Below, piece by piece: positions 24,602 through 25,396 of a stretch of 64,000 nt of DNA. The stretch's first letter is position 1. Each line of letters starts with the position of its first letter. Origin of the DNA: Naegleria gruberi (taxonomy: Eukaryota). Location of the stretch: the NCBI GenBank assembly GCA_000004985.1, contig GG738868.1; one strand, written 5' to 3'. Under the pieces are notes generated by a model that was not told where the DNA came from, did not search any database, and was given only the letters and a program-made list of their open reading frames with translations. Position numbers and translations under genes: made by a program.

Positions 24602-25396
24602 TAGACATCCGGCAACGCGTTTTTAACGTTTTGGTGTTAAAAGGTTTTGAAACCTTATCACTACGTTTCATGACAGACAATCAAACTTCGTAAACTAAAC
24701 TTTAACGTGCAAAGACCACTTATTGATATGCAAATAGTCTGTGAAGTTATTTTTACAAAGACAGTCCCATGAAAAACGTTTTAAAACGTTGCAACTACAT
24801 TTTATTAAATGATTTAATATTGATACGTGGTACTGGTTGTTCTTTTTTGTGTATCTTTACTACATAGTAATCTAGTCTCTCCTCAACGTCAATTTGTTTA
24901 GTTAAATCGGTAACTTTTGGGAATGTTAGTTTCAAAGTATATGTTAAACCTTTTTCGCCAATAGGATCTTTCTTGCTAATGATTTCATCTGTGTCAAAGA
25001 TGATGTCTTCATCAAATTTACCAACACTAAATTGAAACTCCATCATATTAGGTCTCTTTTCGGATGTTTTTGGGATAATTTCTATGCCACCAAACTTTTT
25101 AAAAATCCAATAAATATTGGATTTTGTTATTACGACGCATGGTTTAAACATTATAGGAACGTCTGTATGATTTACAACTTCGACGTAGTTGTTTTTGACG
25201 ACTGCATTCACACCTCTTGTTGGTGATAACATAATAATTTCATCGTCAGATATGTTGCAAAACAACACGAAAAGTTGAAGACGAATAAAACGTAATAAAA
25301 TGTTTGTTCAACGTTGACGTTAATCATCATTCATTTTCAAACGTTCAAATCGCGATTTAAAAAATCGCGATTTTCAACGCGTTGCCGGATGTCTAA
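24602..25396. mobile_element. 795-bp element bounded by perfect 20-bp terminal inverted repeats (TAGACATCCGGCAACGCGTT ... AACGCGTTGCCGGATGTCTA). It reads equally as an 18-bp TIR flanked by TA. It carries one small ORF.
   Basis: The two TIRs, at 24602-24621 and 25377-25396, are exact reverse complements of each other. The interior is enriched in CpG palindromes: AACGTT several times, AATCGCGATT twice and AAGGTTTTGAAACCTT. It sits in the NEK / dynamin-like divergent intergenic region. Confidence 0.5.
24795..25268 (-). CDS. 157-aa ORF of unknown function inside the TIR element (non-ATG first codon in the track; first ATG is 12 codons in)
   Basis: Codon usage matches the host. No transposase-like motifs are recognisable. 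Confidence 0.3.
   Translation of the reverse strand: MLFCNISDDEIIMLSPTRGVNAVVKNNYVEVVNHTDVPIMFKPCVVITKSNIYWIFKKFGGIEIIPKTSEKRPNMMEFQFSVGKFDEDIIFDTDEIISKKDPIGEKGLTYTLKLTFPKVTDLTKQIDVEERLDYYVVKIHKKEQPVPRINIKSFNKM

Follow-up and report, generated by a model that had tools for sequence, protein, structure and literature searches.

A CpG-rich 792-bp element between a kinase gene and a dynamin-like gene of Naegleria gruberi: a probable internally deleted DNA transposon of PHIS type

Transposons of the Pangu group, which forms part of PHIS (PIF/Harbinger, ISL2EU, Spy and Pangu), generate 5'-ANT-3' target-site duplications (TSDs) and are bounded by terminal inverted repeats (TIRs) of 11-40 bp that usually start with AG or GG (Han et al. 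2015, Mob DNA; PMC4482050). The autonomous elements have a mean length of ~3.5 kb and encode a transposase that has a DDE motif but lacks other domains, together with a second open reading frame (ORF) without a known motif; the reported hosts are animals, fungi, a heterokont and algae, and do not include Heterolobosea (PMC4482050). Only a small fraction of the repeats of the heterolobosean Naegleria gruberi can be classified (PMC12344493). The subject of the present analysis is a 792-bp element at positions 24603-25394 of a stretch of 64,000 nucleotides of N. gruberi DNA (assembly GCA_000004985.1, contig GG738868.1), hereafter the window. The element lies between two divergent genes, a Ser/Thr kinase gene on the minus strand and a dynamin-family GTPase gene on the plus strand. 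It is probably a non-autonomous, internally deleted cut-and-paste (TIR, DDE-type) transposon that entered the upstream region shared by the kinase and dynamin-like genes once N. gruberi and Naegleria lovaniensis had diverged, most likely a member of PHIS and closest in habit to Pangu.

A further parallel is provided by PIF/Harbinger elements and their deletion derivatives, such as mPing/Ping and the Tourist-like miniature inverted-repeat transposable elements (MITEs). In this group a two-gene autonomous element encodes a transposase of the DDE_Tnp_4 type, the TIRs and subterminal binding-site repeats persist in non-autonomous copies, and a 3-bp duplication flanks the insertion; each of these traits has a counterpart, observed or putative, in the material described here. 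In contrast to the canonical TWA duplication of PIF/Harbinger, the N. gruberi element has AAT as its putative duplication, and whereas the partner protein of PIF/Harbinger transposases carries a Myb/SANT or MADF domain, neither the ORF of the element nor P0014, its relative in an environmental eukaryote, matches a Pfam family. The element also differs from a classic MITE, which is shorter than 600-800 bp, non-coding and present in high copy number, in having a length of 792 bp and a non-random ORF of 145 aa.

The termini consist of a perfect 20-nt inverted repeat: TAGACATCCGGCAACGCGTT occupies 24602-24621, its exact reverse complement occupies 25376-25395, and 754 nt separate the two. A first-pass annotation of the DNA had recognized both arms correctly but placed the right end one base too far, at 25396, and gave the spacing as 755. 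The 20-mer has no further match in the window at up to three mismatches, and none was seen in 100 shuffles. The flanks read AA-T-AGACATCC...GGATGTCT-A-AT and can be parsed in two ways. In the first parse, a 19-nt TIR starting with AG (AGACATCCGGCAACGCGTT on the plus strand, 24603-24621, or 20 nt with T24602; 25376-25394 on the right) is flanked by a putative 3-bp AAT duplication, read from the sequence at 24600-24602 and 25395-25397. In the second, an 18-nt TIR is flanked by TA at 24602-24603 and 25394-25395. Any ANT duplication adds one T/A pair to the apparent inverted repeat, which would explain why the latter measures 20 nt. The AAT flank fits the ANT of Pangu and the TIR, AGACATCC..., starts with AG, a likeness seen in one copy whose flanks are also readable as TA; the 19-nt terminal repeat falls within the 11-40 bp of that group. 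Neither TAA nor TTA is possible as a duplication at the ends of the element, which sets it apart from the TWA of PIF/Harbinger, and an AT duplication of the ISL2EU type was rejected, as it fits neither register of the ends.

The second parse underlies an earlier proposal of Tc1/mariner affinity. Tc1/mariner elements always duplicate TA, and normally encode one protein without an accessory ORF. On this proposal the locus would hold a non-autonomous, Stowaway-like derivative with an 18-nt TIR (GACATCC...) and a TA duplication, moved by a Tc1/mariner transposase, and the short TIRs and the TA at both ends agree with it. However, the outermost bases of the inverted repeat are a self-complementary TA, so a direct repeat of TA arises automatically and carries little information; a palindromic end or an ANT duplication would account for the TA just as well. 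The element, moreover, carries an ORF of accessory type, in which a remnant of an accessory protein can be seen, and the only relative of this ORF adjoins a transposase of the DDE_Tnp_4 (IS5/Harbinger) type with no link to Tc1/mariner; a Pfam search of the element revealed no Tc1-like coding remnant. With TA as its one argument, and with AAT as an equally good reading of the flanks, a Tc1/mariner origin appears unlikely.

The comparison with N. lovaniensis and the discovery of a second copy both indicate a mobile element rather than a regulatory palindrome fixed in place. In N. lovaniensis, the syntenic locus harbors a kelch protein gene, the kinase gene and the dynamin-like gene in identical order and orientation, yet the start codons of the last two are 269 bp apart, compared with 1314 bp in the window, and both the element and its ORF are absent. 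Removal of the element in silico allows the intergenic regions to be aligned, with the common blocks ATTGNAWTGATGATG, TTTGTAGA, the E2F-like TTTTGGCG and ACGTT; these blocks reach position 24597, ~5 bp from the left TIR. The intergenic region is 52% identical, so that no exact empty site can be read in N. lovaniensis. Preservation of the region as it stands in a related species had been named beforehand as the outcome that would favor a fixed palindrome; the syntenic site of N. lovaniensis lacks the element.

The second copy was detected through an exhaustive phmmer search with the ORF against 1.84 billion (1.84e9) protein representatives, which returned a 59-aa fragment (P0011) from a 527-bp metagenome contig of ENA (L036). 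This copy differs in structure from the one in the window. Aligned to window positions 24989-24618 over 381 columns, the contig shows 5 substitutions in ~353 matched positions (~98.6% identity without indels), a 14-bp deletion that frameshifts the ORF and a 9-bp insertion. Identity is complete over window positions 24622-24700 (79/79), while the remainder of 24622-24794 contains four substitutions and one 9-bp indel. Coding DNA accounts for 1 substitution in ~176 bp and non-coding DNA for 4 in ~177 bp, numbers too small to test selection. The 112 bp that lie upstream of ORF codon ~82 in the metagenome copy match nothing in the window, and the two copies have different internal breakpoints.

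The metagenome copy also reveals how the left end of the window element came to be short. Where the window passes from ...AAAACG straight into CGTTGCCGGATGTCTA, L036 continues with TTCAAATCGCGATTTGAAAATCGCGATTTGCGTCGCGCTGCCGGATGT instead, a stretch with 48/54 identity, in inverted orientation, to the right end of the window element. Its TIR therefore spans 54 nt and includes both boxes of the 12-nt palindrome AAATCGCGATTT and an AACGTT, and since this stretch matches the opposite end of the window element, the TIR of the family is ~54-57 nt long and carries the same motifs. In the window, the right-hand long TIR (25339-25394, minus strand; ~56 nt) comprises the terminal 19 nt, two AAATCGCGATTT boxes and AAACGTT (25339-25345), while the left TIR is truncated and lacks the two boxes. 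To judge from the alignment, the window copy has lost ~33-35 nt of its left TIR between ...AACGCGTT and TTTAACGTTTTGG, with a CGTT microhomology on either side of the loss, and the 20-bp repeat first reported is the remainder of a longer TIR. It follows from the long TIR of L036 that the tandem AATCGCGATT and one AACGTT are TIR sequence and not promoter. A palindrome-rich regulatory cassette, one of the options raised initially, is contradicted by this copy together with the empty orthologous site. The reconstructed 54-57 nt exceed the range of Pangu TIRs. When metagenomes were scanned for the 18-nt TIR core, 32 single matches appeared, roughly as many as chance would produce, all in contigs with a G+C content of 44-73%; these and one viral match were rejected, as they showed no further similarity.

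The affiliation of the element relies in part on the sole credible distant relative of its ORF in the exhaustive search, the 287-aa protein P0014 (E 3e-4). Residues 3-114 of the ORF correspond in a single stretch to residues 144-254 of P0014, with 28% identity in the full-length alignment and the common motifs NxT[DE]VP[IL]MFKP and YW[IV]F; in a reciprocal tblastn of P0014, this ORF is the only match in the window. Two further proteins, P0012 and P0013, were rejected as perfect-repeat proteins whose scores are sums of weak repeats. P0014 occurs on three contigs (L037, L038 and L039) that represent one locus of an environmental eukaryote of 35-37% G+C, at a distance of 60 bp from a divergent 284-306-aa transposase with a Pfam match to DDE_Tnp_4 (6e-28). 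Both genes lie in an apparently complete element of ~3.2 kb (L038, 132-3308) with imperfect inverted termini, ATCCGGAAAATGAGCATT and AATGCTCTACTTCCGGAT, inside which are mirrored subterminal palindromes (AAAATGCTAGCATTTT) and TCTCGAGAAAG repeats. The observed/expected ratio (o/e) of CpG is 0.79 in this element and 0.36 in its flank. The element also displays long imperfect TIRs, palindromes centered on GCTAGC and two further ORFs (184 and 114 aa) without a Pfam match.

P0014 matched no Pfam family at E<=1 and its N-terminus is Myb-like by eye only; a sequence search of the PDB with the L038 transposase was negative. In its length of ~3.2 kb, its DDE-only transposase and its motif-less second ORF, the L038 element resembles Pangu. 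The P0014-type gene is oriented alike in the window element and in that of L038, with its 3' end facing a TIR. An internal-deletion derivative is the simplest reading of the window element; no transposase was found in the element or in the 64-kb window. Membership in Pangu, whose known hosts are not heteroloboseans, would be reached here through one insertion and an indirect link to a transposase recognized by its Pfam DDE_Tnp_4 match alone.

The ORF is located on the minus strand at 24795-25232, with its stop side at 24795, and encodes 145 aa from the first ATG at 25232. It had been described as an ORF of 157 aa; an ORF is present at 25268-24795, and the larger size is obtained only with a GTG start at 25268. 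When the element was shuffled 5000 times, two of the shuffles contained 157 or more consecutive codons without a stop. No meaningful Pfam match was found for the ORF, which bears out the initial impression that it has no transposase features. A word-index protein search with the ORF gave no match, a weak negative in that P0011 was missed too: ~50 nearly identical residues (96%) of that fragment were found by the exhaustive search at E 9e-22, and negatives of the word-index method on short proteins are to be treated with care. The same method, applied to the alignment of the ORF with P0014, returned P0014 itself only. The protein collections, which include proteins of N. lovaniensis and Willaertia and NCBI proteins of N. 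gruberi, yielded no orthologue, and no relatives of the ORF emerged from a viral scan.

Structure prediction by AlphaFold with the two-sequence alignment gave a low-confidence, all-beta model (predicted local distance difference test, pLDDT, 58; predicted template modeling score, pTM, 0.53), while the single-sequence model (pLDDT 47.5) was too poor for use. All of the 50 best Foldseek matches shown for the former model in the PDB are alpha-crystallin domains of small heat-shock proteins or CS domains, at E values of at least 2e-3 and template modeling (TM) scores of 0.4-0.6. The likeness to the small heat-shock and CS (p23-like) proteins consists in the predicted all-beta sandwich; the difference is that the ORF has no sequence-level match to HSP20 or CS in Pfam or, with the ORF profile, in the PDB. 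A beta-sandwich of HSP20/CS type is accordingly offered as a resemblance and a lead for the predicted fold.

The first-pass annotation had raised the possibility of a small captured gene. As the ORF matches the C-terminal half of the transposase-linked P0014 and has a CpG content foreign to the host, it is more likely to be a leftover of an accessory gene of the transposon family itself than a captured host gene. It is conceivable, if doubtful, that the ORF is functional, in which case it would be a small beta-sandwich expressed from the element, the C-terminal module of an undescribed class of PHIS/Pangu helpers, in a family that arrived recently by horizontal transfer; it might then act, for example, as a dominant regulator of the transposition of its family, or serve the host as a recently domesticated factor in a cell-cycle promoter region.

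The dinucleotide composition of the element is foreign to the host. The CpG o/e is 1.62 in the element (34 CpGs) and 0.43 in the 64-kb window as a whole, and the element ranks first among 1265 sliding windows (mean 9.5 CpGs, sd 4.5), with the peak exactly on it; the anomaly reported for its interior in this CpG-poor genome is therefore genuine. Among the window's 40 ORFs that reach 130 aa (mean CpG o/e 0.42, sd 0.17), the ORF of the element has the highest value, 1.02. An AACG/CGTT context surrounds 15 of the 34 CpGs of the element, compared with 22% of those in the rest of the window, and the CpGs of the two non-coding arms fall almost entirely within AACG-core motifs or ATCGCGAT boxes. AACGTT occurs 15 times in the 64 kb; five of these copies are inside the element (24625, 24775, 24785, 25310 and 25340), a density ~40 times that of the remaining window. 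The strong enrichment noted earlier is thus real, although the count of at least six included a copy at 24592, 5 bp outside the element; this copy corresponds to CACGTT in the N. lovaniensis alignment and is therefore host promoter sequence.

Other motifs are equally confined. The two AAATCGCGATTT boxes, already recognized as a tandem palindrome, lie at 25347-25358 and 25362-25373 and are absent elsewhere in the window, and ACGCGT and TCGCGA are found in the window inside the element only. AAGGTTTTGAAACCTT (24641-24656), listed earlier among the palindromes, is not a perfect one; its 7-nt arms surround a TG spacer and form the hairpin AAGGTTT-TG-AAACCTT. This hairpin is part of the left subterminal region (24622-24794), the 3' flank of the ORF, which also contains AACG-core motifs and AAAACGTTTTAAAACGTT (24773-24790, immediately past the stop codon of the ORF), and in which 7 of 9 CpGs are in an AACG/CGTT context. 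The region upstream of the ORF (25233-25338) holds AACGTT (25310) and GACGTT (25316) and probably includes the junction of the internal deletion. The best reading of the CpG palindromes places them in a long TIR and its putative subterminal binding-site repeats. AACG is also the core of classical Myb recognition sites, which for this element is suggestive. An inner inverted repeat, AACGTTGCAACTACATTTTATTA at 24785-24807 and TAATAAAATGTTTGTTCAACGTT at 25293-25315 (23 nt, 83% complementary), brackets the ORF, with one arm overlapping the stop codon; it could be due to chance or be part of a subterminal repeat system.

These data bear on the view that the ORF is a resident host gene with palindromic regulatory sites of its own (CpG motifs like the MluI box or E2F sites), fixed in N. 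gruberi and lost in N. lovaniensis. The ORF is intact and non-random, it shows fewer substitutions than the non-coding DNA against L036 (1 in ~176 bp and 4 in ~177 bp, a difference that is not statistically significant), and ACGCGT and TCGCGA resemble cell-cycle promoter boxes. The CpG content of the ORF is nevertheless the most un-host-like of the 40 ORFs, L036 differs in its 5' junction, carries the TIR at full length and has lost 14 bp with a shift of the frame, the collections that hold N. lovaniensis and Willaertia proteins contain no orthologue, and the CpG motifs belong to a 54-nt terminal inverted repeat and not to a one-sided promoter. A host gene of this kind is very improbable.

The composition is also relevant to the possibility that the segment is a horizontally acquired fragment, from a giant virus, a virophage or polinton-like element or other endogenized DNA, whose inverted ends arose by chance and which is not itself a transposon. 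Its strongly foreign dinucleotide signature would suit such an origin, as would the report of viral insertions, which together with young repeats are marked by 5-methylcytosine (5mC) in N. gruberi (PMC12344493). However, the viral scans revealed no relatives, either for the ORF or for the terminal sequence. The doubled AAATCGCGATTT was met in two phage-like contigs of IMG/VR (L040, 3840-3866; L041, 2354-2380), which were rejected as unrelated phage promoter regions with promoter-like spacers; they share no further similarity with the element and look like convergent operator-type sites. The TIRs, the flanking duplication, the rearranged second copy and the link to a transposase favor transposition, and a foreign fragment that is not a transposon is improbable. 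The two views are compatible in one respect, as the transposon family itself may have entered horizontally.

For the non-autonomous PHIS-type transposon, the proposed course of events is as follows. The DDE_Tnp_4-type transposase of an autonomous relative, probably with a P0014-like helper, would bind the terminal 19 nt and the subterminal palindromes, excise the element and reinsert it at ANT sites through a 3-nt staggered cut. An internal deletion, as by abortive gap repair, would have cost the element its transposase gene as well as the N-terminal half of the helper gene, and the later loss of both AAATCGCGATTT boxes at the left end probably crippled further movement. The high CpG content would be explained by a recent arrival and by binding-site palindromes yet to decay to the CpG-poor equilibrium of the host. 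A recent arrival is suggested by the near identity of the two copies and by the undecayed CpGs in a host with a CpG o/e of 0.43; the family possibly came by horizontal transfer. That the element is a non-autonomous transposon, which the first-pass annotation listed as one option, now gains support from the site without the element in N. lovaniensis, the second copy in L036 and the relative of the ORF beside a DDE transposase.

Several observations weigh against this account. L036 ends inside the TIR and could strictly be a rearranged allele of the window locus from another strain. The TSD can be read as AAT, as TA or as none, and is taken from one full copy with both flanks. The termini of the L038 element share only ATCCGG with the Naegleria TIR, which is weak evidence, and neither a clean TSD nor perfect termini were found on that element when looked for. 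The suggested link to DDE_Tnp_4 is indirect and runs through one distant homologue (28% identity, E 3e-4) in an environmental eukaryote, and no autonomous Naegleria copy was seen, the N. gruberi DNA covered being the window. The most likely superfamily is thus suggested by one remote protein homology and by the flanks of one insertion.

A defective transposon in a promoter is nothing out of the ordinary. The family seems not to be catalogued, although it may already be present in Repbase or Dfam. For annotation, the analysis provides the ends, the predicted binding-site architecture and the likely superfamily of one unclassified repeat family of N. gruberi, and an unannotated ORF is flagged as transposon-derived and not as a host gene. 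The CpG contrast (1.62 and 0.43) indicates that the dinucleotide signature alone can flag young or foreign insertions in this genome. If the proposed affiliation is true, the Pangu/PHIS lineage would extend to Heterolobosea, and a conserved all-beta C-terminal domain, as predicted, would give a first handle on the motif-less second ORF of Pangu.

The neighboring genes are well defined. The kinase gene (minus strand; Pfam Pkinase, 8e-43) starts with an ATG at 24380, with a first exon at 24380-23841 and an intron at ~23840-23747. The dynamin-family ORF (plus strand, 25694-27424; Pfam Dynamin_N, 5e-12) is 100% identical to an NCBI entry, 'predicted protein [Naegleria gruberi]'. The E2F-like palindromic site TTTTGGCGCCAAA is located at 24553-24565, ~175 bp upstream of the kinase ATG, and is partly kept in N. 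lovaniensis as TTTTTTGGCGG (L001, about 7890-7900) at an equal distance from that ATG; TTTGTAGA directly precedes it in both species. The insertion parts the dynamin-like gene from this conserved E2F-like promoter block and may affect the regulation of that gene.

The conserved block ATTGCAATGATGATG (window 24502-24583) corresponds to ATTGTATTGATGATG in N. lovaniensis. It gives sub-threshold Rfam matches to C/D-box small nucleolar RNAs (snoRNAs), namely snoU30 (24.9 bits against a cutoff of 45 bits) and SNORD78; the Rfam matches near the element are of this snoRNA-like kind only and lie at 24503-24577, outside it. The ATTGCAAT of the block might base-pair with a second one ~70 nt downstream, but a D box (CTGA) is not apparent, and the block is probably a promoter motif rather than a snoRNA. 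No tRNA gene was found near the element, and the sole tRNA gene of the window is a tRNA-Gly(TCC) at 35721-35791 on the minus strand. An ORF of 163 aa on the minus strand (48241-48732) ranks second in the window for CpG o/e (0.85; mean 0.42) and may be another gene of atypical composition.

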